Notes: generated by a model from the sequence alone, not told the origin. 64,000 bases of DNA from Vulcanimicrobiota bacterium (GCA_963777315.1 CAVZQC010000003.1:1-64000), one strand, 5' to 3'; counted from the first letter of the stretch, positions 43,416-59,191 are shown. A program made the numbers and translations.

Positions 43416-43589
43416 ATGTCAACCGACGCGAAGCAGGCACTAGACGAACACGCGCGTTCTATCGATTCGCTGCATCAACAGTTGGCCGCCATGCCGGGCG
43501 CGGACAAAGAACGTTTGAAAGAAGTCGTCGGCAAATACAAGGCGGCCCACAAGCAGTTTGAAGACGACGCGCTCGGGTGTATGAACTAA
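43416..43589 (+). CDS. Small helical hypothetical protein
   Basis: GGAG RBS before ATG; amphipathic 57 aa ending CMN. Confidence 0.55.
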   Translation: MSTDAKQALDEHARSIDSLHQQLAAMPGADKERLKEVVGKYKAAHKQFEDDALGCMN

Positions 43590-45085
43590 CCGCGCAGCAG
43601 TTCCTCGAGCGCGATCCCATCGGGACAGCCTAGTCCCGTGCACGGGTTCCATCCCGCTTGCGCGTTGTAGACTCCATTACTCCCGCCAACCACCTCCCGC
43701 ATGGGTTGTGGATTCGAACCATAGAGCAGCGGCGCGAAAAAGCCGATAGGTTTCGAAAGCCGTTCGTTCAGCCGTGCAGCAAGCGCCGCCCACATCGGTG
43801 CGACTGCGCTCGTTCCCCCTGCGGCTAATTCCGTGCCGTTGAGATATACCAAATATCCCGGCGATTCTTGTGCTGCAACGTCGGGCACACCCCGTCCCGG
43901 CGTCACCCGCAGCGCAGCCGCAACTTCTCGTGCACGATCTTGCCACGCGGGCAGTGGAAAATGCTCGCTGAATCCGCCGCCCGTGTGCTCCCATGCAACC
44001 TCAGCGCCCCCGGATTGAATTTGCGTCGCTCCGGCGGCGTGCGCGAAGGGTGCCGATGCAGGCGCAACGACGTGCGGCTTTCCATCGAGCTGCAGTTCGG
44101 CGCCATGATCTCCTGAAGAGCAAATAACGGTTATGCCGAGTAATGCCGCCGCCGCGAACAAGTCGTTTAAAATATCGAGTGCGCAAGGGGTCCACAGCGG
44201 CTCTGGCCATCCGTAACTGACGGATATAATCGAGGGGCGCATCTCCTCGTCGAAAACCGCGGCGCGCAGCGCGTCTAGGAGGCCGCGCTCGTCGTCGGGC
44301 GCCTGATACAGCACGATGCGCGCATCGGGTGCGAGCGCTGCGGCAATTTGCACGTCCAGCGCCGCCTCCAAGTCTTTGACCGTTTCTATCTCGTGGACCA
44401 GGCTCGCGTTGTCGAGGCGTTTCACCTGCGGCTGCTGCGTCGTAAGTGACTGTGCCTGCATGCATTGGGCGAAATCATCCTCGCGAAACTCGCCGCGCAA
44501 TTGCAGGATAGCGATGGTTTGGCCACGCCCGGTGGCCTGGGGAAAGCGGTAGCGTTCCGCTATTTCGGCCGCGCGAAGCGGCGATTCGCGGCGTTGCAAA
44601 GCGCCCAACCTCTGCGAACGCGGCCACTGGTGAAACCCGAACACGCCCCGCAGTAACGCCGCGATTTCCGCCGGCGCATGCAACGCGCCGTCGCGATGGC
44701 GGAAACGGTATCCGCTGGAATCCTCGAACGTCGCGACGGAAGCTCCGAACGCTTCGATGGAACGATCCAACGGTGCGCGCAAGACCAAGCAACGCCAGTG
44801 CTGTTCGAGGACTTCAATGCGGTGACGAGTGCAGTATGCCCGAAATTCATCGATGGCGCTATCGTCGGCCGCGCTTGCCTTAACCAGGGCCGCGCGTTCT
44901 GCATACGTTCGCGCGCCGATGGAAGTGTGGCCGATCTCGTACGCTCGGCTCACATCCACCGCGTTCTGCGCGTGGGGCTGCAGCCAGGCCGTCAGTAAGA
45001 CCTCGTTCTCCGCTCGAACGTCTCCTACGCGCGTACTCGCCGGCCACTGTGTGCGTTTCGTTCCTGGAATGGCAACGCTCGTCAT
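43586..45085 (-). CDS. Peptidase S53 (sedolisin/kumamolisin) with prodomain
   Basis: EAALD, SSGDHG, GRGVPDVA, GGTSAVAP, WNPCTGLG; no evident signal peptide. Confidence 0.9.
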   Translation of the reverse strand: MTSVAIPGTKRTQWPASTRVGDVRAENEVLLTAWLQPHAQNAVDVSRAYEIGHTSIGARTYAERAALVKASAADDSAIDEFRAYCTRHRIEVLEQHWRCLVLRAPLDRSIEAFGASVATFEDSSGYRFRHRDGALHAPAEIAALLRGVFGFHQWPRSQRLGALQRRESPLRAAEIAERYRFPQATGRGQTIAILQLRGEFREDDFAQCMQAQSLTTQQPQVKRLDNASLVHEIETVKDLEAALDVQIAAALAPDARIVLYQAPDDERGLLDALRAAVFDEEMRPSIISVSYGWPEPLWTPCALDILNDLFAAAALLGITVICSSGDHGAELQLDGKPHVVAPASAPFAHAAGATQIQSGGAEVAWEHTGGGFSEHFPLPAWQDRAREVAAALRVTPGRGVPDVAAQESPGYLVYLNGTELAAGGTSAVAPMWAALAARLNERLSKPIGFFAPLLYGSNPQPMREVVGGSNGVYNAQAGWNPCTGLGCPDGIALEELLRG

Positions 45086-45171
45086 GCGTGGCAGATTGGA
45101 CAAGGGTGAAACGGAACCCGCCGGCCGGCGCGTTCGGCGGAGGGAAGCAACCCCAGCACGAAGCAGGTCGT

Positions 45172-47970
45172 ATGGGGATGCAGGCTGAGGCCGAAAACAC
45201 GGTCTCCGTTCTCCCTACCGGTACGGTGACGTTTTTGTTTTCGGATATCGAAGGCAGCACCGTGCGGTGGGAAAGCGCGCCCGATGCAATGGCGCTTGCG
45301 TTAGCGCGCCATGACGCGATGATGCGCGAGCTCATCGAAGCGCACGGCGGATACGTGTTTAAAACGATCGGAGATGCTTTCTGCGCGGCCTTCGCAAGTA
45401 CGCCTGAAGCGACCGCCGCCGCCCTTGACGCCCAGCGCGCCCTTATCGCCGAAGATTTTTCGCACGTCGACGGACTGCGCGTGCGCATGGCACTGCATTC
45501 GGGAACTTGCGGCGAGCGCGGCGGCGACTACTTCGGTCCCACCGTCAATCGGGTTGCGAGGTTGCTCGCAATCGGTCATGGCGGTCAGGTGCTGCTCTCG
45601 CGTGCCTGCGCGGAGCTCCTACGCGGTGACACGCCGCAATACGCTCTGCGCGATCTCGGCAGCCACCGGCTCAAGGACCTCTCCCAACCGGAATACGTCT
45701 ATCAGCTGATGGCGCCGGAATTGCCCGACGCGTTTCCGGAGTTGCTCTCGCTCGATCATCTGTCAAACAATTTGCCGGCTCAATTAACGTCGTTCGTCGG
45801 ACGCGAGGAGGTGATGGGTGAGATTAAGGCGCTGCTCGCGCATAACCGGCTCGTGACGCTCGTCGGAACGGGCGGTGCGGGCAAGACGCGTTGTGCGATT
45901 CAGGTCGGCGCAGAATTGCTCGACGGTTCGGGCGACGGCGTATGGTTAGCCGAACTGGCGCCGATCTCCGACGCCTCGCTCGTCACGAGTGCCATTGCGC
46001 GCGCATTGAACGTACAAGCATCGCCGAACCGCCCGATACTGGATACGCTGATCGGTTATCTCAAGCGTAAACGGCTGCTGCTGATTCTTGACAACTGCGA
46101 ACACGTCATCGACGAAGCGCGAACCGTCGCGAGCGCAATACTGCGGGCTTCTCCCGAGGTGCGTATTCTCGTAACGAGCCGTGAGGCGTTGAATATTGCG
46201 GGCGAACGGCTCTATCGCATGCCTTCGCTTGCCGTGCCGCCTACAACGCAGGCGCTATCGCCGCAGGACATCCTCGGATTCGGTGCCTCATTGCTTTTTA
46301 GCGACCGAGCCTTGTCCGTGACCGATCGATTTACGTTGACGGATGAGAACGTCTCGCATGTCGCGGAGATCTGCCGGAGACTCGATGGGATTCCACTGGC
46401 CATTGAACTGGCGGCCGCACGGGTGAAAGTGCTCTCGCCCAAGCACATCGCGCAGATGCTCGACGAGCGCTTCCGTTTGCTGACCGGCGGCGATCGCAAT
46501 GCGCTGCCGCGCCAGCAGACCATGCGCGCCCTGATCGATTGGAGCTACGATCTGCTCACGGACGACGAACGAGCGCTTTTCCGCAAACTCTCGATCTTCG
46601 CCGGCGGCTTCACGCTGGAGGCCGCCGCGATCGTATGCACCGGGAGCGAGATGGATGAAATCGCCATGCTGGATCCGCTTTCGTCGCTCGTAGACAAGTC
46701 GCTCCTGCAAGCCGAGCAAGTTGAAAGTGGGACGCGGTACCGATTCTTGGAATCCACGCGGCAATATGCCCGCGAGCGTCTCGCCGAGCATGGAGAGCAT
46801 GCAGCGGTTGCACAGGCGCATGCAACCGCATTTCTGACCCTTGCTGAAAAGCTGGGGCGAAGTTGGGAGACGACGTCCGATCGGGAGTGGTTCGCCCAGT
46901 TGGAGCCGGAGCTGGAAAACTTCCGCGCAGCGTTGAGCTGGTCGCTCGGCGCGCGAGGCGATGTTTTGCTTGGGCAGCGGCTGGCGGGGGCGTTGCATCA
47001 AGCGTGGTGGTCGCTGGCGACGGCAGAGGGGCGCAGGTGGGTGCAGATGGCGCGCGATCTTACCAACGACCAGACGCCCCGGCCGGTGATGGCCGTACTC
47101 GATCTCACGGAAGCCGAGCTCGCCGCGTCGCTCGTACAATATACGGCAAGCCGTACGGCGTGTGAACGTGCTCTGGGGCACTACAGTGCGATTGGCGATG
47201 CCATGGGAATTGCGTACGCGCAGCGATGTCTGGCCCTCGCGCTGATCTTTCTGGGAAAGATCGAAGAGGGTGAGGCGCTGCTGGGGCCGGCCCTATCGCA
47301 AGCTCGAGCGCTGGGAGCGCGAAGACTGACGGGAGTCGTGCTGCAGACGCTAGCGGACGCGCGTCATTCGGTCGGTGACGTCAGCGAAGCTCGACGCCTG
47401 CACGCCGAAGCATTGGCCAACCTTCGAGCCGTCGGCGCGGAACGCACGGCCGCAAACGTCTGTGTAAATCTCGGCGAAGCGGAGTTTCACGGCGGAAACG
47501 CAGACGAAGCGCTTCGATGGGCAAGTGAGGCGCTCGCTACCCACCGGTCGTTCAACGCCACGCGCGGTATCGCGTTTGCGCAGATCAACATGACGGCATA
47601 TTTGACGGCGCTCGAACGGTACGATGAAGCGCGCCTTTGCGCGCGCGCGGCGATCGGCGCGGCACGCGACGCGCAACTCCAAGTAGGTACGGCATGGGCG
47701 CTGCAGCATCTTGCGGCAACGGTTGTGCTGCGCCCGGCAGATCCCAAGCAGGCGCGTGACGAACGGCGTTGCGGGACGCGTCTTTTGGGCTACGCCGATG
47801 CGCGCCTGACTGAACTGGAATCGTTGCGTGAATTCACCGAGCAGCAGGAGTACGAAAAAATGCTTGCCGCATTAGGCGCGGCGTTAGATGCGGATGAAGT
47901 TGCAAAGCTCATGCGGGAAGGCAGCCTCTGGAGCGAAGATCAAGCCGTCGCCGAGGCGATGCTCATTTAA
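45172..47970 (+). CDS. Class III nucleotide cyclase - STAND ATPase - TPR protein
   Basis: FSDIEGST, KTIGDAF, VNRVARL; GTGGAGKT Walker A, LDNCEH, GIPLAIELAA; helical C-terminus. Confidence 0.92.
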   Translation: MGMQAEAENTVSVLPTGTVTFLFSDIEGSTVRWESAPDAMALALARHDAMMRELIEAHGGYVFKTIGDAFCAAFASTPEATAAALDAQRALIAEDFSHVDGLRVRMALHSGTCGERGGDYFGPTVNRVARLLAIGHGGQVLLSRACAELLRGDTPQYALRDLGSHRLKDLSQPEYVYQLMAPELPDAFPELLSLDHLSNNLPAQLTSFVGREEVMGEIKALLAHNRLVTLVGTGGAGKTRCAIQVGAELLDGSGDGVWLAELAPISDASLVTSAIARALNVQASPNRPILDTLIGYLKRKRLLLILDNCEHVIDEARTVASAILRASPEVRILVTSREALNIAGERLYRMPSLAVPPTTQALSPQDILGFGASLLFSDRALSVTDRFTLTDENVSHVAEICRRLDGIPLAIELAAARVKVLSPKHIAQMLDERFRLLTGGDRNALPRQQTMRALIDWSYDLLTDDERALFRKLSIFAGGFTLEAAAIVCTGSEMDEIAMLDPLSSLVDKSLLQAEQVESGTRYRFLESTRQYARERLAEHGEHAAVAQAHATAFLTLAEKLGRSWETTSDREWFAQLEPELENFRAALSWSLGARGDVLLGQRLAGALHQAWWSLATAEGRRWVQMARDLTNDQTPRPVMAVLDLTEAELAASLVQYTASRTACERALGHYSAIGDAMGIAYAQRCLALALIFLGKIEEGEALLGPALSQARALGARRLTGVVLQTLADARHSVGDVSEARRLHAEALANLRAVGAERTAANVCVNLGEAEFHGGNADEALRWASEALATHRSFNATRGIAFAQINMTAYLTALERYDEARLCARAAIGAARDAQLQVGTAWALQHLAATVVLRPADPKQARDERRCGTRLLGYADARLTELESLREFTEQQEYEKMLAALGAALDADEVAKLMREGSLWSEDQAVAEAMLI

Positions 47971-49309: not shown

Positions 49310-50818
49310 TCAAACGATTTTGACGCGAAATTTTGCAACCACTTTGCCGTTGACCGGCAGCGAGCCGCCGCTATAGGTAAAGGTAACCGTTCCGCCGGAC
49401 TGAGCGGGCGCGCACGAGAGCGGCCCGGGCGTGGTCACGCAGGTTGCGCTCGCCGCCACGTATGCCGTGTATTGCGGGATGGGGTCGCTGATGGAAAACG
49501 ACTGCAGCGCGAACGCGCGGTGATTGGTAAACGTCAGCGTGTATTCCAGTACGTCGCCGGGCAGTCCATTCACCGTATTTCCCGGCCCGAGGGACTCGGT
49601 GATGTTCGCGACCTGTTTGACGAGATTCGCCGCGGTAAACGTCGTCGTGACCGCGTTCGAAGAAAGTGTTTGCCCACCGTACTCCGAGGGGTCGAACGGA
49701 ACGCTTCCCTGCGCGGTATTGACGGCGCTGCCGCTCGAGGAGCTCGTCGAGCCGACCACGTGCAGCGTCGCCGTAGCGCCCGCGCTCAAGTTTGAAGCGG
49801 TTGCAACGACGGTTTGAGCGCTGGCAGCCGACGTTACGGCGCAAGTGCCGGCGCCGCCGGTCACCGCGCATGATGGCGGTGTGATAGACGAGATTGTGAT
49901 GCTCGCAGGGATCGGGTCGGTCAGCGAGGCGCTCGCGGCGGCGAAATATCCCGTGTTCTTGAGCGCGACGTCGTAGAAGAGTGAATCGCCCGGACCGGCA
50001 GCGCCGGTGCCCGCCTTCGCGATCGTGAATGTGGCCGGTACGGATGCGAGATCGTTGACCACGTCGCTTCCGGTCGCAATCGCGGTGTGGCTGCCGACAA
50101 GCGCGCCTGCGGTGGTGTATTCCCACAGCGTCCAAGGAGAACCGCTGCCGATTTGCTCGCAGGCGGCCAGGTCGCCGTTGGGCAAAAGCGCCGCGCCCGT
50201 AAGGCTTCCGCTGGGCCCACTGAGCGTTACGGGACCGGTGACTGCGCCGGTCGTTGCGTTGATCGTGTACAGACTGTGCGTCGCAACGACGTAAAGCGTT
50301 TCGTTGTTGGCTGCAGTCGGAGCGGCGACGATGTCGCCGTTGGTACCGATCGACGTGCTCAGCGTAAGCGTCTTTTGAACCGCGGCCGTGGATGGGTTTA
50401 CCCAGGCGACGGTGTTTGCGCTGGTCATCGTCACGAGGCATCCCGCAGCGCAATACTTCGTCGTAGGATCGAACGACATGCGCGCCTCCGTACCGGACAA
50501 ACCGGAGATCGATCCCACGATCGTTGCGGCACCATAGGCCGTTGCCGACGTCGGCGCGTTCGGATTGAAAGCCGCCTTGACCAGCTGCCCGGAAGCATTC
50601 GAAACGTACAGATTGCCGCTCAAGTCCTGCGCCAGATCCTGGGCGCTGGTTCCCGAAAAAATACTCCCGTACGATTGAACGACGGAGCCCGACGTGGTGT
50701 CGATGAGATAGACGCCGGCGCTGTCGCTGAGCACCATGATGGTTGCCGCGCGTCCGGCAGCCATCGCACCGATCCATCCCAGCACGGCCAGCGCCGCCGC
50801 AAGAAGATAGCGGCGCAT
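49310..50818 (-). CDS. Secreted protein: beta-propeller-like head + DUF11 domains (putative tip subunit)
   Basis: Signal peptide; IAK...PGDSLFY...TDPIP...VNTA complete domain; terminal LVK...PGDVLEY...SDPIP...FRVKIV incomplete domain. Confidence 0.8.
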   Translation of the reverse strand: MRRYLLAAALAVLGWIGAMAAGRAATIMVLSDSAGVYLIDTTSGSVVQSYGSIFSGTSAQDLAQDLSGNLYVSNASGQLVKAAFNPNAPTSATAYGAATIVGSISGLSGTEARMSFDPTTKYCAAGCLVTMTSANTVAWVNPSTAAVQKTLTLSTSIGTNGDIVAAPTAANNETLYVVATHSLYTINATTGAVTGPVTLSGPSGSLTGAALLPNGDLAACEQIGSGSPWTLWEYTTAGALVGSHTAIATGSDVVNDLASVPATFTIAKAGTGAAGPGDSLFYDVALKNTGYFAAASASLTDPIPASITISSITPPSCAVTGGAGTCAVTSAASAQTVVATASNLSAGATATLHVVGSTSSSSGSAVNTAQGSVPFDPSEYGGQTLSSNAVTTTFTAANLVKQVANITESLGPGNTVNGLPGDVLEYTLTFTNHRAFALQSFSISDPIPQYTAYVAASATCVTTPGPLSCAPAQSGGTVTFTYSGGSLPVNGKVVAKFRVKIV

Positions 50819-53800
50819 CTACCGGCTTGCCCCCCAGCCGAAGATGCGATCGATGAGGGTTGTGAACGTGAAATAGAATCCCTTGCGTTGCGGCTTTCCG
50901 CTCAACGTCGGATCGATGCTCCCGGAAAAATTGTATCCGGCTGCCAGACGCGCGTCGTTGCCGATTGTGTAACCCGCCTCGGCGGCCACGTCGGTCGTTT
51001 GCGCACCGGGAACGTTGGCCGCATTCAACATCCGCAGCTCAGCGCCCACGTCGAACCGCGTTCCGACGTTTTGACGGGCCCGTAGTCCGAAAAGTGAGGT
51101 GTGGGCGGCGTAATAGCCGTCTCCGTCGAGTTTCTCGGCCACTCTTCCAGCCAGTTCGAACGTATTCCATGGCCGGTACACTTCTTCGAAGGAAAGCACG
51201 TCGGTGCGCTCGGGCAGCAAGGACGAAGTTCCGGTGAGGCGCTCATAGCCGAGCAACGATACCAAGGTGTCGTTGTTCTGCGGACGATAGGCGAGCGAGA
51301 TGCGGTCGTCGGCGGCGTTCGTGCCGCTTCCGGAAACCTGATTGAGCGTTCCGAGCACCGCAATATTCGGTCCGACGTGGCCGGTAAGACCTCCGCTGAA
51401 CGTGGTTCCTCCCAGCGACCCGGTACGCGACTGATATGCCAGGGCCGCGCGAAAATCTTTGGAATCGGAATAGGCAACCGAGCCGCCGTAGACGGTAAAT
51501 CCTGCGGCGCCCGCGCCGGACGCGTTCGCCTGCTGCATCGTGAGGTTTCCACTGAGCCGTTTACCGATGCTGAATTTTTGCGTGACGCCGAGCGCGGAGT
51601 AGATGTCAGTAGCGTTTCCGGTATCCGTAATCAGATAATCGCTCTCAACGTTCATGGCCGGGCTCATCGCGCGTTCGAAGCCGATTTGCGTCGAACGCGT
51701 TCCAAGGTTCGTCAATCCGAGCGCGCCTGCAGATTGCGCGAACGCCGTTGCAGCAGAATCGCTGAGCAGTTGCCGCACGAACACTTTGCTGCGGTCGTCG
51801 AACGCATAACTCAATTCAGCGGAGGTTTGTGCCGGCTGCGTGGTCTGCGCGGTTGCTCCGGTCAGATCCTGATCGCGCTGAACGTTCAAGCCGACGCGCT
51901 TGCTCGGTTTCCAGTCGAAGCCGAGCTGAGCTTGCATTTGCGTGGAGCGTTGCAGCACATTCGGCTCAGGGGAGCTGCCCGTGAGCGGCGGCGATATGGT
52001 CAGTGGAACGTTTTGCTGCGCGTGCGCCTGGACGCCGAACAGCAGCGAAATCGTTTTGTTCACCGCTGTATTCCACAGCAGGCTCGCGTTGTTTTGCGCG
52101 TCTTCAACGCCCGCTCCATGATTGCGCTGGCCATCGGCTTCGAGCGTCAACGTCTGGCCGGGCGCTGCATGACGAGACCACGCAACGCGATAATTGGTAA
52201 AGCCCGGCGAGGATATCCCGCCGAACGGGTCGGCGAAACCGGCTGCGGTGTCTTGATACAGCGCGTCGATTTGATTGGGGCCAATGCGGTCGTTCAAGGT
52301 GAGATCGATCGCGTTGCCGCCGCCCCCGCTCGAAAGTTGACCCCCCGTAACGCCGGGCGCCGACCCCGAACTCGACGCGTGTGAAAGTATCCACTGGCCG
52401 CCCGGAAGCTTTCCGGTTAATGATTGCGAGACCAAGGAGAAGTTCGATGCTCCGGTGGCATCGTTGACGTAGGAAACGCGCAGTTTGGCTGCCGCTGAGC
52501 CGCCGATATCGACCCATGCGTTGCCTCCGGTTACTGCCGAATGCGTGGCGATTCCTTGATACTGATACTGCAGCTGCAGCACCTGAGGATTGAAATAGGG
52601 GTCGAACGGCAGCGGAACGTTGATGAAACGCAGCGTTCCGGTTGCATAATCTATCGTGTAATCGACGTTTCGAATCAACGGCGTTTGCGAGATGACGGCG
52701 CCGGTTCGCCGGTCTATCGACGCAAGGGTGATGTAATCGGATCCGACGACGATGTCGGGCTGCAGCGGCTGCGCAAGCGTCAAAAGGCCGCTCACGGGAA
52801 TGGTCGTCGAGACGTACGCCACTTGATTGCGCGCCGTGAACGCGTTCACATGAATGTGAGAATCCTTGTTCGCCAACTCGACTTTTGCACCCGAGAGCAA
52901 CTGTCGATACGCGCCAACCGCGTTGTCATCGCCGGCGGTTGCTTGAAATTGTCCCCACATGATACTGTCGCGTCCGCTGTCGAGGCGTGCGTACAACCGA
53001 TCGTTGGACTCAAAATCGGAAGATCGCGTCGAGGAATCTCCATAGGTTTGATACGGGCGTTCGTTCGGATCGTCCACGAAGGGACCATACGAAGAGAGCG
53101 GGGCAAGCGTGTTCTGCGACTCGTACGCAACGGTCAGCAGAGACTGTTTGCCGACGCGGCCGCTGGCAAACAGTGCAGCGCGTGCCCGGCGCGCGCTGCC
53201 GCCGTCGTCTACGCCATCGCCGTCGACCGCAATCGGCACGGCTCCGGCGCCTACGCTGACCAGTCCGTTGACCAGCGGTTTACGCAGATAGGGCGCGACG
53301 TACAGCGTTTGTGCAGACGTGAGTTCGCCCGCCGCGATTTGCAGCGTGATGTCGCCGGCCGTCAGCCCGGGAACGATGGGAATGCCGACATGCCCTCCGA
53401 GGCCGAGCTGCGCGGTGAAAACCGCGTTTTCGCTGCCGGGCGAGGCTGTGGGCGCCGGCGACGCGCCGGTGGTCGCCGACGGTAAGCCGGCGGATGCAAA
53501 GCGCGCATCGCCGCGCATGAGCGTGACCTTCACTGGGACTCCCGCCATCGCGGGATCCCCCCAGCGGTCCGTCGCGGAAACATCGAGCAATACGGCGCTT
53601 CGGCCGTCGGCCACGAGCGTGCCTTGCAACTGGGTGCGCAGCGTTGCGGGAGGCCCGCAACCGTAGATTAACGCCGTTGCCGAAGCTCCGCGCAACCCTG
53701 CTGCGCCTATCGGGGTGGCGACGAGCTCATTTGGGCCGGGCTTGAGGACGACGCCGAAATATTCGAACTGCGCCGTTCCCCCTTTGGCCGAAGCGGTACG

Positions 53801-54148
53801 GCGTCCGATGCGGGTAAGCGGCACGAGTTCGCCGTTCACGCGCAGCTCCACGCCGGCGCCGTACACCGTGTCGACGACGACTCGCGTTGCAACTGAAGGC
53901 GATACCGTTTTGTCGGACGGAAAAGCGAACGATGCCGTCAGCGGGCCGGTCGCGGTGTACGATTCATGCGCAAGATCCGCGTACTTGATCGAATTCGGCG
54001 ACTCGGACGGTGCCGGGCTCGGGCTGGAGATCGGCGCGGCAACGTCGTCGCCGGTGGCCCCCGATCGCGTCGCCGCCGCGCAGATCAACGAAATGGCAAT
54101 CATCATGGCGCCGATTCGGCGAAGCGCATGTGCGATGGCGATTGTCAT
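50819..54148 (-). CDS. Large exported protein with Ig-like N-region and probable outer-membrane beta-barrel
   Basis: Signal peptide; long run of amphipathic strands (FDVGAELRML, ARLAAGYNFSG, GFYFTFT); ATGA overlap with the upstream gene. Confidence 0.72.
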   Translation of the reverse strand: MTIAIAHALRRIGAMMIAISLICAAATRSGATGDDVAAPISSPSPAPSESPNSIKYADLAHESYTATGPLTASFAFPSDKTVSPSVATRVVVDTVYGAGVELRVNGELVPLTRIGRRTASAKGGTAQFEYFGVVLKPGPNELVATPIGAAGLRGASATALIYGCGPPATLRTQLQGTLVADGRSAVLLDVSATDRWGDPAMAGVPVKVTLMRGDARFASAGLPSATTGASPAPTASPGSENAVFTAQLGLGGHVGIPIVPGLTAGDITLQIAAGELTSAQTLYVAPYLRKPLVNGLVSVGAGAVPIAVDGDGVDDGGSARRARAALFASGRVGKQSLLTVAYESQNTLAPLSSYGPFVDDPNERPYQTYGDSSTRSSDFESNDRLYARLDSGRDSIMWGQFQATAGDDNAVGAYRQLLSGAKVELANKDSHIHVNAFTARNQVAYVSTTIPVSGLLTLAQPLQPDIVVGSDYITLASIDRRTGAVISQTPLIRNVDYTIDYATGTLRFINVPLPFDPYFNPQVLQLQYQYQGIATHSAVTGGNAWVDIGGSAAAKLRVSYVNDATGASNFSLVSQSLTGKLPGGQWILSHASSSGSAPGVTGGQLSSGGGGNAIDLTLNDRIGPNQIDALYQDTAAGFADPFGGISSPGFTNYRVAWSRHAAPGQTLTLEADGQRNHGAGVEDAQNNASLLWNTAVNKTISLLFGVQAHAQQNVPLTISPPLTGSSPEPNVLQRSTQMQAQLGFDWKPSKRVGLNVQRDQDLTGATAQTTQPAQTSAELSYAFDDRSKVFVRQLLSDSAATAFAQSAGALGLTNLGTRSTQIGFERAMSPAMNVESDYLITDTGNATDIYSALGVTQKFSIGKRLSGNLTMQQANASGAGAAGFTVYGGSVAYSDSKDFRAALAYQSRTGSLGGTTFSGGLTGHVGPNIAVLGTLNQVSGSGTNAADDRISLAYRPQNNDTLVSLLGYERLTGTSSLLPERTDVLSFEEVYRPWNTFELAGRVAEKLDGDGYYAAHTSLFGLRARQNVGTRFDVGAELRMLNAANVPGAQTTDVAAEAGYTIGNDARLAAGYNFSGSIDPTLSGKPQRKGFYFTFTTLIDRIFGWGASR

Positions 54149-56316
54149 CGTGTATCCTGCAGAGCGAAGTTGACGTCTTCCATGAGGCCGTCGTCGAAGA
54201 GTCCGTGCACCAAACGCTGCATCGACCACGTGCTGTTCATGCGCGCGTTCGAGAAGGGACGAACGGTCTGCGGAATCGTCGCCGGATCCACGCGTAGCAC
54301 GTGCATCCCGGGCCTCACGGCCGCGAACGAGTAGCGTCCGTTCTGATCCGTAAGGACGGAGCTCCCGTCCTCCAGAAAGATACGCACGCCCGCAATGCCC
54401 TCATCGCCTGTGCTGAACCGTCCGGTGCGATGCACGTCCAGAAACACGCGGCCCGTGATCACGCCGCGCTGCGAGAACGCTCCGGCGACCACGCGTACGT
54501 CGGCAGTTGCGCCGGCCGTCGCCGAAACGGCGGTTCCCGGAATCTTCGCTGAAGCGGTCACCGTGTTGACGAGCGTCGTTCCGGCCACCGCTGATGGAAA
54601 AACGAGGGCGGCGTAGACGATGTCGTGCGTCGTCGAGGGAGGTAACGCCGGAACGTTCCAGGTCAGAACGCGCCCGTTTACCGAAGGTTCCAGCGGCGTT
54701 GAGTCCATGCGCGCCGTGCCGGGTGCGTACGATTCGCCCGGCGGAAGCACGTCCGCTACTTGCGTTTCACCGAGTCCGGATTGCGATGGATTCCCGAATT
54801 GGATCGTGTAGATCAGCCGATCTCCGGGCTGCGCGACCGGCTTATCCACCGCTTTGCTCACCGAGATCGATCGCGCGGTGAACAGCGGGACGTTTCCGAA
54901 CAATCCGAACACGTTGGCAAGCGTTACGTTGGCGGAAGTCAGCACAAAACCACCTGCTTGCGCCAGCGGCTGACCGTCCAGCGACGAAGCCGTGACGTCG
55001 TACAGCATCTTGCCGGCATCGAGTTTTATAATCAGACCGATCTTGCGGTTCATGAATCCCGGAGCGGTAATCGTCAGGAAAAACTGCGATCCCCCGGGCG
55101 CAATCATGCTCGGCGCGACCGCGAAGGAATACGCGCCGTTCGCGCCGGTGGTGAACGGATTCTGCGTGTTCGCCGTATCGACGGGCGGCACGCCGCTCAT
55201 ATTCACCGGTTTACCGTTTGCATCCAATAGCGTGACGACTGCTGCGCCCACCGGGCGATCGGCATTTGAAGGATCGAAAACGAGGTTTGCAGTCCCGATC
55301 AGCACGCTCGCAGGCGTCGTATTGGTGGCGGATACGCCGTCGGCCGCCACTTGCGCAACGTTGGTGAAGGTCGCACCGGTCGTCGAATTGGCCAGAACCG
55401 AGGCAGTAAAGGAGACGTCGAACGTCGCCCCGGCCGCAACCGAAGGAATGCGGACCGACAGCGTCCGACCGGAAAGCGTCGCAGCCGAACCCGCCGGCGA
55501 CCCGTCGAGCAGCACCGACGAAAGATTCGCTTGCAATCCGGCCGGAACAACATCGGTGACCACCACGTTCGTCGCTGCCGCTTCGCCCGAGTTCTTCGCG
55601 CGAATGTCGAACGTGACGTCGGCGCCGGGGTTGGACTGTACGATCAGCTGCTGATCGACCGTTTTCGATATCTGCGTCGCAGGGCCGCCGATCCCGGTGA
55701 ATTGCGGACCTTGCGCTGCCAAGGCCCATTGCATGCCGGTGTCGCTTTGCAATCCGTTGGAGGTACCTGCGACCGTGGTTTGCGCCGTAATGGAAAGCGG
55801 AAACGCCGTTCTAAGCGCGATGCCGCCCGTTGAAACGACGATCTGCAACTCAATGGAGTCACCCGGCGGGACGCTGGGCGAAACCGTCGATCCAATCGTC
55901 GCGGGATACGATGCGCCGCCTGCGACGAACGCCGCGGAGAGCAGCTTACCGGGACCGGTGCTTGCGGTCTGGATCGTGTACGCGTCGGTGACGTTGCTGA
56001 CGTTCGTGATTGTGAACGCGCGCGTCACGTTCGATCCGGCGGCGTAGGCGTCGGTCGCCGGATCGACTTTCGATTCCTTCGGCGTGACGGTGAGCGCTCC
56101 GACCGGCGCGTACGTTGTAATCACCGGGTTCGAATCGGCAACATAACTCTGCCCCGAACCGTCTTCATATGTGGCGGTCGCGGTGTTCTGCACTTTGGAG
56201 CCTGCCGGAGTCGCGGTAATCATCGGCCTGAAAGGCGCCGCCTGCAGCAGTCCCGGTGCGAGCGCAGCCAGCGCGAACACGGGGAGAATCTGCCGAACAA
56301 CGCGTGCGATGTTCAC
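54145..56316 (-). CDS. Secreted DUF11 repeat protein with C-terminal SdrD B-like domain (putative base subunit)
   Basis: Signal peptide, [17 protein letters not shown], two complete DUF11 domains, ITGRVFLD...[14 protein letters not shown]...TDQNGRYSF. Confidence 0.82.
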
Positions 56317-56340
56317 GCCGGATGCGCTAAACGCTTCCCG

Positions 56341-58674
56341 TTATTTCGCGATCACCGCGAAGTACAGGATGCCGCCGACCTGTGGCGTCAGCACGAACGT
56401 ACCGCCGCCGACTTGATCCATGAACGCGTTGGATGCGACCGCGTTGCCGTTGTCGTTGGGCGTGCTGGATCCGCCGACGACCGCGTACGTCGAGCCCGTG
56501 GTGTTGTCGCCGCAGGTTCCCGCAACGTTGCCGCACTGATTGGTTACCGCAGCACCCGAGGTGAGCGCTTCCTTCAATCCACCCGAATACGTGGCCCAGG
56601 TATTCGTGCCGGCGCCGCCGTCTTCGGTGATTTTTAGCGTTCCCGCGACCATCGCGAGGGCAACGTTTCCTGCTCCACTGACCGTGCTTACCGGAAGCGT
56701 ATTGAGATAGGCGACTTTGTATTGGATTACGCCGGCCGGACAAACGCCGTTCGCCGGAACGGAAGCACCCGCGGGACACCCGGTTGAGAGCACGGTTGCG
56801 GTTTTTTGCAGCGAGATGAAGCCGCCCGGCATGAGCACGTGATAGGTCGAGTTACTGTACGATCCGGATGCTTGTGAGGTCGCGAGCACCTGAACGTATA
56901 TTGGATTGAAGTCCGTCGGCGCGTTTGCTCCGCTTGCGCTGCTGTATTTCACGCAGTACGGCGCGGTCGCGCTCGCCGAAACGGAGATCTGATAGTTGCC
57001 TGAGCCGTCTTTGGTAGCCAGATTCGTGCAGTTATAGTCCGTGTACACGCCGGTCACCGTGACGGCCGCCGGCAGGCTCGGAAACGTAAAGGAGTACGTG
57101 TCGTTGCCGCTCGACGTATTCTGAAGATCGCCTGGAACGTTGAGCACCGTGCCGCCGGGGAGCTGGGCGCCGAACGTGCCGTTGGATCCCAGACTCGCTT
57201 GCGTGAAATCGGTGTTGGTAGTGTTGCTGCCGCAGGTCGCGGTGTTGTAGCAGCCGGAAGCGCCGGCGGCGCCTTTCGGGCCGTTGAGCACACCGGGAAC
57301 GTTGCTGGTCGTAGTATTCGACAGGCCGTTGGCCGCAGGATTTCCGCTCGCGGCATTATACGCGGTCGATGGATCGGCGGTACCGTTATTGGGAACCGTT
57401 CCCGGCGCGATGCCCGGACCTTCTACAAAGCCCGCGTTGTCCGCGTATGCCGTGACCGCGACGTTCTTGATCGCATTTCCGGGCGGCAAGTTGGTGAGCG
57501 TGAGCGTAAACTCCAGTTCCGCTTGCGCGTTGCTGACGTTGCCTGCACTCGACCCCGACGACCCGACCGGAATCGCCCCGGTACCGGTGATGTAAACACC
57601 CACAAAGTACGCGGTGCCGGCGGATGGAGCGGTGGTCGTCCAGCCGGATTTTCCCGTGTTGTCCGTGGTGTAGACGATCGTTGCGGTGTCGCCCGCGATG
57701 CTGATGTTCTTGGTGATGCTGGCGCTCGAAACGGTAAGCGGCACGCCGCCGTTTTGCGGAATCTTGTCGGTGACCAGGATGCCGTTGTTGGTTGCGCTGA
57801 GCGCCGAGCCGGTAATCGTCGTACCGCTTTGGCGAATCGACTGCAGCAACTGCGCGGGCGCAGCGCCGCCGTTGTTCACGTCGATCGTGTAGGTGAGGGT
57901 ATTGCCCGAAACGACGCCGGCGGTTTTCTGCAAATCCAAGCGTGCGTCGGCGACGACCGTATCGCCGTACGTGTTCGATACCGCATTGGACGTCGAAGCG
58001 CCGTAATTCGAACCGGTCCCCGGATAAGTGATCGTCGCACCGGCAACCGTAGTGCCCACGGTGCCGGATCCCGCCGTTGTGACTTTATATTGAATCGCCA
58101 CGTTGATGAACGCGCCTGCTGGCAGGCCGTAGACGTTCGTGTTTGCGGCCGTCGAAAGATACGTATTGGCTGCGGCGACCGTCGCGAACGTATGCGGCAC
58201 GCCGTCCGTACCGGTGACGATGACGTTTTGGAACGTACCGGGTCCGCTGACCGTCGACGTGCCGGCGCCGAGCTGAAAGTAGCCGCTGGAATTTCCGGTG
58301 TTCGTCAGCGTGTAAATGTCGTTGATGACGTTGCCGTACACAATGGGACCGGCCGGCACGTTTTGATTTTGCGTGGTCGAACCCGGCGCAGTTCCGTTGT
58401 TCGTCGTGATCACCAGCGAAGGCGCGTTCTGGACGAACGTCTGGACTTGATTGGACGTCGAGCTGTAGGTGTTCGTGCCGTCGCTGTATGATGCGCTGGC
58501 GGTGTTGTTGATCGCGGTACCCGGCGCGGTGGAGGATGTCGGCGTTGGCATCGGCGTGTAGATTGGCGGCGGCGTGGCGGCAATGGCGGGTGAAACGCCG
58601 ATTCTCACCGCCGCAAGAGCCAGCCCACAGGCCAGAACGAAAAGCAGGGCCAGCAGGCCGCGCGAAGTCTTCAC
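56341..58674 (-). CDS. Secreted Thr/Gly/Asn-rich DUF11 protein (putative major subunit)
   Basis: GTG after GAGGA, signal peptide, TAPGTAINNTASASYSD N-motif, LQKTA repeats, ends GILYFAVIAK. Confidence 0.82.
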   Translation of the reverse strand: MKTSRGLLALLFVLACGLALAAVRIGVSPAIAATPPPIYTPMPTPTSSTAPGTAINNTASASYSDGTNTYSSTSNQVQTFVQNAPSLVITTNNGTAPGSTTQNQNVPAGPIVYGNVINDIYTLTNTGNSSGYFQLGAGTSTVSGPGTFQNVIVTGTDGVPHTFATVAAANTYLSTAANTNVYGLPAGAFINVAIQYKVTTAGSGTVGTTVAGATITYPGTGSNYGASTSNAVSNTYGDTVVADARLDLQKTAGVVSGNTLTYTIDVNNGGAAPAQLLQSIRQSGTTITGSALSATNNGILVTDKIPQNGGVPLTVSSASITKNISIAGDTATIVYTTDNTGKSGWTTTAPSAGTAYFVGVYITGTGAIPVGSSGSSAGNVSNAQAELEFTLTLTNLPPGNAIKNVAVTAYADNAGFVEGPGIAPGTVPNNGTADPSTAYNAASGNPAANGLSNTTTSNVPGVLNGPKGAAGASGCYNTATCGSNTTNTDFTQASLGSNGTFGAQLPGGTVLNVPGDLQNTSSGNDTYSFTFPSLPAAVTVTGVYTDYNCTNLATKDGSGNYQISVSASATAPYCVKYSSASGANAPTDFNPIYVQVLATSQASGSYSNSTYHVLMPGGFISLQKTATVLSTGCPAGASVPANGVCPAGVIQYKVAYLNTLPVSTVSGAGNVALAMVAGTLKITEDGGAGTNTWATYSGGLKEALTSGAAVTNQCGNVAGTCGDNTTGSTYAVVGGSSTPNDNGNAVASNAFMDQVGGGTFVLTPQVGGILYFAVIAK

Positions 58675-58687
58675 TGATGTTCCTCGA

Positions 58688-59191
58688 TTACGGCTTTTTG
58701 GCGGCGGGATGTCCGTTGACGCGCACTTCATAGCTGAACGTCTGCGTCTTATGCGGTGCAAGTGCCCGTGGCGCGATCCAGCGCACGGCCTTGTACAACG
58801 CCGGGTCGGCGGCTTTCACGAGCGTTCTTCGCGGCGTCTTCACCGAAAAGGCCGGCCGGGCGGACCAGCTCTTCCCATCCAGCGTGTATTGGACGGCGGC
58901 ATCGTCGCCGCGCGCAGACTGCAGAACGTATGAAGTTGCTTGGGGGATGGGGCCGACCGGAACGAGTTTGAACGCGGGAGAGGTTCCTACGTTCGTCGCG
59001 ACGATCGTGTAGCGAACGAGATCGCCGGCCTTGAGCGTCAGCCCTTGCACGGGCGTTTGTTTGATTTGACCGTTGCTATGCTGCACAAGCACGCCGCTCA
59101 AATGCAGTTTCACCGCGGGTGCCGCCGCGGCTGCCGCCGAGCAGCACGCAAAAATCGCGCCCAACAGTAAAGGCGCGCGCAGAACTCTCAT
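58688..59191 (-). CDS. Small secreted single-DUF11-like protein (putative chaperone)
   Basis: GGAGGA RBS, signal peptide, AGDLVRYTIVATNVG, PIPQATSYV, VRW, FSYEVRV. Confidence 0.82.
   Translation of the reverse strand: MRVLRAPLLLGAIFACCSAAAAAAPAVKLHLSGVLVQHSNGQIKQTPVQGLTLKAGDLVRYTIVATNVGTSPAFKLVPVGPIPQATSYVLQSARGDDAAVQYTLDGKSWSARPAFSVKTPRRTLVKAADPALYKAVRWIAPRALAPHKTQTFSYEVRVNGHPAAKKP

Follow-up and report, generated by a model that had tools for sequence, protein, structure and literature searches.

The window analyzed here is a stretch of 64,000 nucleotides from a Vulcanimicrobiota bacterium (GCA_963777315.1, CAVZQC010000003.1:1-64000). Five co-oriented, closely packed minus-strand open reading frames (ORFs) fill positions 49310-59191 of it, and we named them P1 to P5 in gene order, from 59191 down to 49310 (Table 1). 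An original prediction, made from the sequence alone, had proposed that these genes encode a fiber built from split DUF11 domains, and we followed it up computationally. The ORFs of the five co-oriented exported proteins that it described were confirmed, and a hydrophobic, signal-peptide-like segment opens each of them, as judged by eye and not by a predictor. The intergenic gaps are 13, 24 and 0 bases besides one overlap, with the P5 start lying directly 3′ of the P4 stop. The overlap, in which the P4 ATG and the P3 stop are read as ATGA, suggests that the genes form one translationally coupled operon.

Table 1. Features of the P1-P5 operon and of the chaperone-usher matches elsewhere in the genome. 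Coordinates are those of the window unless contig C2 is named.
Feature	Coordinates	Strand	Description
P1	58688-59191	(-)	167 amino acids (aa); single truncated DUF11/CLIPPER-type domain, no hairpin; acceptor type
P2	56341-58674	(-)	777 aa; GTG start, same in database copy; proposed shaft subunit with N-terminal hairpin donor and C-terminal acceptor
P2 donor hairpin	58426-58530	(-)	residues 49-83; Asn57, Asn75
P2 acceptor domain	56344-56841	(-)	residues 612-777; Lys624, Glu684; stops at the strand before the missing hairpin
P3	54145-56316	(-)	723 aa; proposed base subunit; hairpin donor, then complete domains; no acceptor at the end
P3 donor hairpin	56113-56205	(-)	residues 38-68
P4	50819-54148	(-)	1109 aa; presumed outer-membrane barrel; two Ig-like domains, then about 40 long strands
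P5	49310-50818	(-)	502 aa; proposed tip subunit; variable N-terminal head, one complete DUF11 domain, C-terminal acceptor; no hairpin
P5 acceptor	49313-49636	(-)	carries Lys and Asp (LVK, ISDPIP)
PapD_N	C2:385020-385385		only PapD_N match of the genome; outside the window
Usher (PF00577)	C2:386243-387673		only Usher match of the genome; outside the window

The DUF11 profile PF01345 matched P3 with 69.4 bits (residues 215-335 against profile positions 3-111 of 114) and P5 with 32.1 bits (cut-off 24.6). P1 scored 21.7 bits, which is under that cut-off. TIGR01451 was found above its cut-off in P1 (29.0 bits, cut-off 24), P3 and P5, and TIGR04226, a model of the RrgB-D2 isopeptide type, was above cut-off in P3. 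Complete DUF11 domains are therefore present in P3 and P5, as originally read. The available text of PMC12617251 reports that DUF11 was lately renamed CLIPPER and that crystal structure 9IFR holds an isopeptide bond formed by Lys715, Asp748 and Asn806. The corresponding triad of the first complete domain in P3 is well kept among relatives: K218 in 58/59, D255 in 60/60 and N319 in 60/60. The triad of the second complete domain, K488, D522 and N584, is also kept across relatives. A search of the PDB with the P3 sequence alone returned nothing. With a P3 profile, it returned pilins and 9ifr, residues 211-453 matching the LPXTG pilin structures 8kb2 and 8w5b (E ∼1e-10) and residues 484-595 matching 9ifr (E 9e-5). 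The monomer model of P3 is a string of beta domains with a mean predicted local distance difference test score (pLDDT) of 90.3.

Other domains of the operon stop short. The last 108 residues of P5 align solely to DUF11 profile positions 15-81 of 114, and read directly (LVK...ISDPIP...FRVKIV-stop) the protein ends with the strand that comes before "G-x-T-F-x-N-x-A" in P3. The Asn-bearing strand is missing from the domains that end P2 and P5 and is borne by the N-terminus of another protein. A closely similar block opens P2 and P3 after the signal peptide, and the two proteins are homologous over their first ∼250 residues. We call this block the donor hairpin and the shortened C-terminal domain the acceptor. 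Profile truncation in P5, direct reading and the relatives described below agree with the claim that some proteins stop before the Asn-bearing strands while others open with them. They also agree with its assignment of donor plus acceptor to P2, donor without acceptor to P3 and acceptor without donor to P5.

We found 165 homologues of P2, all of them unnamed or labelled "hypothetical". The invariant residues gather at the two ends of the protein. Among 109 P2 sequences, these are T49, I55, N57, A59, D65, S74, N75, V81, N83 and A84 in the N-terminal part and K624, G686, W693, G699 and F772 in the C-terminal part. A Pro/Thr-rich linker (residues 32-48; window 58426-58560, minus strand) lies between signal peptide and hairpin in the P2 of the window and its nearest relatives. 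Most P2 relatives have no such linker, and their hairpin follows directly after the predicted cleavage site. In P5, the head is possibly beta-propeller-like: comparison with a protein atlas pointed to DUF4394/NHL, beta-propeller-like clusters with a score of 0.86, and all such matches, being below 0.9, are leads only.

The original prediction had asked whether the donor/acceptor polarity is conserved in homologous neighborhoods. A pattern scan, with one genome taken per species, gave 71 loci, nearly all named Eremiobacterota or Vulcanimicrobiota, which we call lineage 1. Judged by how its close homologues are named, the organism of the window belongs to Eremiobacterota, family Vulcanimicrobiaceae. 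Where the contig left room, P1 was upstream of P2 in 59/66 loci, P3 followed P2 in 57/58 and P4 was present in 48/49, with one locus (L048) as the single exception for both P3 and P4. A hairpin pattern made for this analysis was found in 63/65 P2 and 56/60 P3 relatives, and in 0/69 P1 and 0/51 P4 relatives. The C-terminus of P2 lies no more than 2 residues from the final strand in 59/65 cases; the exceptions are three proteins with two or three extra residues and three broken ORFs. P1 ends within 2 residues of the same strand in 65/69 cases, and the P1 of the window, with 9 extra residues, is one of the four exceptions. The gene after P4 differs in length and family among relatives. Judged by eye, ∼27 of 35 complete ORFs at this place combine a signal-like start, no hairpin and the strand at the exact C-terminus; a stricter regular expression accepted 21/35. 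Of 301 genomes sampled from the phylum, 72 had P4, two of these being flagged as unpublished (G213 and G263), as did 51 of 234 high-quality ones. Its distribution is patchy by genus, from 17/19 in one to 0/59 in another. The genome of the window has a single copy of the P4 gene. On one Eremiobacterota contig (L070), a second P1-P2-P3 set comes directly downstream of a complete P3-P4-tip set, a layout that suggests tandem operon copies.

A second lineage was found through P4. Searched against 1.84 billion cluster representatives, the P4 profile matched 3252 proteins at E ≤0.001, of which 1329 were at E ≤1e-30. Many matches are proteins of 1500-3654 residues whose C-terminal part is P4-like. Six were examined, and they include proteins of ∼1900 residues in which a hairpin, P3-like domains, a low-complexity linker and P4 follow one another in a single chain. 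Where the organism is named, these fused proteins belong to Acidobacteriota or Blastocatellia; they are labelled "hypothetical", "TIGR01451 repeat protein" or "isopeptide-forming domain-containing fimbrial protein". A scan with a 9-row alignment of fused proteins yielded 80 metagenome loci (lineage 2). Because these loci carry contig identifiers only, their placing in Acidobacteriota is taken from the names of the query proteins.

The gene order in lineage 2 is P1, P2, the fused P3-P4 gene and a variable gene. P2 and P1 were upstream in 45/45 loci with room for them, and an ORF was downstream in 52/52. Complete downstream ORFs ended in the strand in 53/57 cases. Of 60 fused genes with an intact start, 58 had the P3 part and 54 the hairpin pattern. 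Since the hairpin-only protein is here physically joined to the P4 barrel protein, lineage 2 gives the best evidence that P3 is the base. The polarity is thus kept in 71 lineage 1 loci and 80 lineage 2 loci, which indicates that it is older than the split of the two lineages.

P4-like regions also end giant proteins with dozens of DUF11-type repeats, among them P0298 (3654 aa) with cluster mates of up to 5826 aa. The P4 family may therefore also root single-chain giant adhesins.

We then predicted the complex of P2 residues 606-777 with P2 residues 44-92, both taken from a 109-row alignment. The hairpin docked in the last domain with an interaction prediction score from aligned errors (ipSAE) of 0.78, compared with 0.00 for the best of three controls. 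In the calibration of the ipSAE mark, 116 of 157 solved complexes and 2 of 215 mismatched pairs came up to it, counts that apply only roughly because a custom alignment was used here. The runs shared at least 85% of contacts, and the partner pLDDT was at least 71. On the hairpin, the modelled interface comprises residues 49, 53-66 and 69-83. Residues 59-63 pair with strand 679-686, which bears E684, and the second hairpin strand pairs with the K624 strand; this is presumably the arrangement expected of a complete CLIPPER domain. The acceptor had a pLDDT of 82-83 with the hairpin, and of 69 and 55 with unrelated partners. The model supports binding of hairpin to acceptor without demonstrating it. 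In this model of two P2 pieces, the hairpin completes the C-terminal domain as had been foreseen, with both the E684 strand and K624 in contact with it. The foreseen juxtaposition of Lys with its Asn was found only in part: in the model, K624 touches S74, N75 and V77, and N57 touches Y652 and W693.

The residues that could form a cross-link are nearly invariant. N57 is kept in 63/63 sequences of lineage 1 and 51/51 of lineage 2, and K624 in 61/63 (non-gap rows) and 50/51; position 684 is E or D in 63/64 and 51/51. The Asn of the P3 donor, N44, is kept in 57/58 relatives. The placing of Lys and acid on the acceptor and of Asn on the donor, as originally proposed, is therefore well supported in both lineages. 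N57 lies within an x-N-x-A motif, which bears the triad Asn in the complete P3 domains. N75 was also considered as the bonded residue for its contact with K624. Its counterpart in split P3, N63, is Asn in 58/58 relatives. However, the same position is Asn in 0/58 fused bases, in which the first Asn is kept in 54/58, and we ranked N75 below N57 for this reason. The bonded Asn is most likely N57 (N44 in P3), as far as conservation can tell; the loss at the N75 position argues against N75 and does not prove N57.

The original prediction gave no role to the first gene of the operon. Its polarity of base, shaft and tip holds in both lineages, but P1 has to be added as a protein of acceptor type without the Lys and acid. 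Compared by hhalign with a complete P3 domain, P1 matched over the first half with a probability of 95%. In lineage 1, the Lys position of P1 is K in 36/69 sequences, and the acid position is G in 49/69 and D or E in 11/69. Lineage 2 has R at the Lys position in 48/49 sequences, and at the acid position G in 42/49 and never D or E. P1 keeps the fold and the C-terminal stop but not the Lys and the acid, which supports the view that these residues serve chemistry in P2 and not folding. We suggest, as a weaker and quite tentative proposal, that P1 could be a reversible, non-covalent hairpin cap or periplasmic chaperone that stays until a cross-linking acceptor replaces it. A PapD-type chaperone donates a strand, and a strand-receiving cap would be the reverse.

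The AlphaFold2 model of P4 has a mean pLDDT of 76 and a predicted template modelling score (pTM) of 0.66. Its Ig-like domains, at about residues 60-290, match invasin and intimin domains with Z of 12.5-14. Long strands extend over residues 293-1100, apart from a small insert at 473-509, and the fold matches of this region are spread about evenly over many outer-membrane barrels: TamA (Z 13.8), porins (∼12.5), FimD (10.6) and PapC (10.5). FimD (root mean square deviation (rmsd) 7.7, 304 residues aligned) and PapC (rmsd 7.5, 313 aligned) both rank below TamA and the porins. Foldseek TM-scores against the listed LptD and TonB-dependent receptor barrels were 0.16-0.27 when normalised to the target and 0.13-0.16 when normalised to the model. 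The available text of PMC9758169 describes the sole cultured member of the Eremiobacterota, which are diderm, as having a Gram-negative envelope with an outer membrane. For the outer-membrane barrel of the original prediction, the model offers ∼40 strands with barrel-type fold matches; that P4 forms a single barrel and sits in the membrane is presumed.

Taken together, gene order, truncations, conservation of motifs and residues, gene fusion and a passing complex model lead us to favor a polar surface fiber of tip, shaft repeats and base, whose root is the presumed outer-membrane barrel and whose joints are probably locked by Lys-Asn bonds. We regard this reading as probable, with considerable room for doubt. 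The polymer, the bond, the surface location, the export route and the direction of growth are what we infer or propose from that evidence. The acceptor would be a CLIPPER/DUF11-type Ig-like domain two strands short, and the mature N-terminal hairpin of the next subunit would supply both strands. The order would be the P5 tip with an acceptor only, n copies of the P2 shaft with hairpin and acceptor, the P3 base with a hairpin only, and then the P4 barrel. Every subunit would have its C-terminus towards the cell and its N-terminus outwards. The base would be held at P4, with which it is one polypeptide in lineage 2. Once the hairpin is seated, K624, E684 and the hairpin Asn, likeliest N57 at the canonical CLIPPER Asn position, would form an autocatalytic Lys-Asn isopeptide and so make the joints covalent, in the manner of a natural tag/catcher pair.

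Two routes of assembly can be proposed. Like chaperone-usher pili, the fiber may start with the tip and be extended at its base within the periplasm, the barrel-tethered base being captured last. Alternatively, it may grow at the distal end on the surface, where the free hairpin would stay bound to P1 until an acceptor able to cross-link takes the place of P1 for good.

Several results weigh against the fiber as just described. P2 gave no Pfam or NCBIfam match, whole or in pieces, and the isolated P2 hairpin, P2 last domain and P3 hairpin found nothing in Pfam at E 10. A PDB search with a P2 profile also returned nothing at E 1. Aligned by hhalign with the complete P3 domains, the P2 ends, like the P3 hairpin, gave short, insignificant local matches at the expected profile positions, with probabilities of at most 17% for the P2 ends and E of 0.03-0.12 for the hairpins. 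Because profile searches of P2 give nothing, its description as two DUF11 halves relies on motifs and on the complex model. That model covers solely the pair of two P2 pieces, and it fits binding in trans and in cis alike because both chains were cut from P2. Its contact list also places K624 beside S74, N75 and V77 without naming N57, leaving the bonded Asn uncertain. In the monomer model of P3, the hairpin is formed as strands with a pLDDT of ∼86, compared with 92-98 in its neighbors, which gives no support to the idea that an unpaired donor should look uncertain. Lys and acid motifs occurred together in 36/53 variable tip genes of lineage 2 and 15/21 of lineage 1, as counted by a crude regular expression only. 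For P4, no Pfam family was found at E 0.1, and Foldseek and fold searches with the whole model returned generic barrel and Ig-like matches with no specific relative. That P4 is one giant barrel in the outer membrane is presumed from strand lists and fold matches. Finally, promoter and terminator signals in a consensus scan of the operon were no more numerous than in shuffles.

These points leave room for other readings. The hairpin of P2 could complete the last domain of the same molecule, as in a circular permutation with the rest of the protein inserted, and the P3 hairpin could pair one to one with P1 or P5, giving closed monomers and small heterodimers. A complex model built from two pieces of one protein would look the same in this case, and the fairly confident P3 hairpin in the monomer fits it as well. 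However, P3, which has only a hairpin, and P5 and P1, which have only acceptors, can find no partner within their own chain, and both lineages show this asymmetry. In most relatives, no linker separates the hairpin from the domain that follows, and closure in cis would therefore bend all the domains of a 700-residue protein into a ring. With two kinds of acceptor-only protein and a single donor-only kind, the operon does not suit fixed 1∶1 pairs either, and we consider such closure quite unlikely. Still less probable, in our judgment, is that the proteins are separate monomeric adhesins. The hairpin would then be part of a first domain common to P2 and P3, the C-terminal domains would be short but complete, and P4 would be an autotransporter-like anchor or pore for P3 only. 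The homology of P2 and P3 over their first ∼250 residues and the weak sequence evidence for the P2 ends as DUF11 halves are in keeping with this, as are the P4-like regions at the end of giant proteins (up to 3654 aa) with many DUF11 domains, where an ordinary adhesin anchor would be found. On the other hand, the P3 domain after the hairpin already has nine strands of its own in the model, and the pLDDT of the acceptor, 82-83 with the hairpin, drops to 55-69 with another partner in its place. Moreover, in three protein classes that are unrelated to one another, the chain ends exactly at one and the same strand.

A fiber could also be built by strand donation with no covalent lock, the Lys, acid and Asn being kept for packing or hydrogen bonding. 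The bond is proposed here from sequence and model, and the available texts report that some DUF11 domains have no isopeptide bond (PMC12617251) and that BsaA oligomers are stable in sodium dodecyl sulfate (SDS) even without theirs (bioRxiv 10.1101/2024.11.04.621531). Against this, the triad is near-invariant in the shaft acceptors and donors of both lineages and is lost in P1, which keeps the fold. For this reason, we hold a fiber without the lock to be unlikely. The cross-linked polar fiber is the reading that we retain in what follows.

The absence of sortase and classical chaperone-usher genes was part of the original prediction. The genome, at 89.9% completeness, gave no match to sortase PF04203, and an LPXTG end is absent from all five proteins, with C-termini such as ...FAVIAK, ...ALQDTR and ...FRVKIV. 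The operon likewise holds no Usher or PapD family member by Pfam and NCBIfam. However, an Usher match (87.1 bits) and a PapD_N match (48.6 bits), both above their cut-offs, lie on another contig, C2 (Table 1). Judging by these families, the organism carries an ordinary chaperone-usher pilus locus besides the P1-P5 operon, and the claim holds for the operon but not, as regards chaperone and usher, for the genome.

Two ORFs lie beyond the far side of the operon. The first, at 43586-45103 on the minus strand, encodes 505 aa and by eye reads like a sedolisin/kumamolisin-type serine peptidase. The second, at 45049-47970 on the plus strand, encodes 973 aa and by eye reads like an adenylate-cyclase domain with an ATPase and repeats of the tetratricopeptide (TPR) type, a LuxR-less "AAA+ TPR" regulator.

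We found no published description of a split DUF11 fiber or of the P4 barrel family in a literature search made mostly outside subscription journals and without supplementary files. One paper on "tafi" (PMC11821415) came up as a source on DUF11, but in its available text the match was only to "DUF1102", and it was rejected as not being about DUF11; its available text gives a general description of chaperone-usher pili. It is possible, though we would put it at somewhat less than an even chance, that the operon represents an undescribed pilus class of two-membrane bacteria: an enzyme-free natural tag/catcher polymer, with a catalytically dead P1 as reversible chaperone or cap and a giant barrel, joined in some phyla to the base, as export pore and root. 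If true, this would be a further class beside chaperone-usher, type IV, type V, sortase and curli pili, in little-studied but abundant soil phyla. It would link strand complementation as known from Gram-negative bacteria with the isopeptide chemistry of Gram-positive pilins, which have so far been treated apart. It would also be a natural counterpart of engineered tag/catcher pairs, with P1 as a built-in non-reactive competitor, and its parts could serve protein engineers. Functions would also be offered for the unnamed P2 family of 165 proteins and for the P4 family, whose 3252 cluster representatives suggest that it is widespread in soil bacteria. The question raised is how folded multi-domain fibers are rooted and pass the outer membrane without a classical usher.

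Compared with CLIPPER/DUF11 (PF01345) as known, P3 and P5 hold complete members with the Lys-Asp-Asn triad, the acceptors stop within the fold and the hairpins bear x-N-x-A. The known bond is within one domain of one chain, whereas here the domain is divided between two proteins and the bond would join subunits. In its available text, the CLIPPER survey covers intramolecular bonds only and describes no split form (PMC12617251). P2 is not filed as a DUF11 member by sequence.

The chemistry proposed here resembles that of BsaA from Clostridium perfringens, a member of the TasA family. The available text describes an "exchange and lock" in which an N-terminal segment enters the sheet of the next subunit and the donor Asn bonds the acceptor Lys with Glu as catalyst; mutants of each residue lost oligomers (bioRxiv 10.1101/2024.11.04.621531). 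N-terminal insertion followed by a bond of donor Asn with acceptor Lys, helped by an acid, would be common to both systems. In contrast, BsaA has another fold and family, a single-domain subunit, a Gram-positive host and an export tied to type IV pilus genes and SipW, and it has no outer-membrane component and no tip or base subunits. No TasA/BsaA family was found among the Pfam or NCBIfam matches of the five proteins. The archaeal threads of Sulfolobus acidocaldarius, made of Saci_0406, are described in the available text as combining donor-strand complementation with apparent inter-subunit isopeptide bonds (PMC9715654). The proposed P1-P5 fiber would likewise be a filament held by strand complementation with bonds between subunits. 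In the threads, however, the bond links the N-terminal amino group with an Asn of the subunit two positions away, the host is an archaeon without an outer membrane and the fold is unrelated. Sortase pili of the SpaA/RrgB type share with P3 the pilin matches and the TIGR04226 family reported above, but with neither LPXTG ends nor a sortase at hand, the joints here would be autocatalytic.

A parallel in layout is found in chaperone-usher pili. Both these pili and the proposed P1-P5 fiber have an acceptor-only tip with a binding head, shaft subunits with donor and acceptor, and a donor-only last subunit. In Fim and Pap pili, these roles are filled by FimH or PapG at the tip, FimA or PapA in the shaft and PapH as terminator, with FimD or PapC as usher and FimC or PapD as chaperone. 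In both systems, an N-terminal donor completes the Ig-like fold of the previous subunit (here in the model only, as given by the ipSAE of 0.78 compared with 0.00), and the operon holds a dedicated large beta-sheet protein. Among the differences, the P1-P5 operon has no Usher or PapD family member, and the fold of P4 resembles FimD and PapC no more than it does other barrels. A hairpin of two strands takes the place of the single donor strand, and the subunits are multi-domain proteins of 500-800 residues. Finally, in one lineage the base is fused to the barrel protein, and the joints of the fiber are probably covalent.

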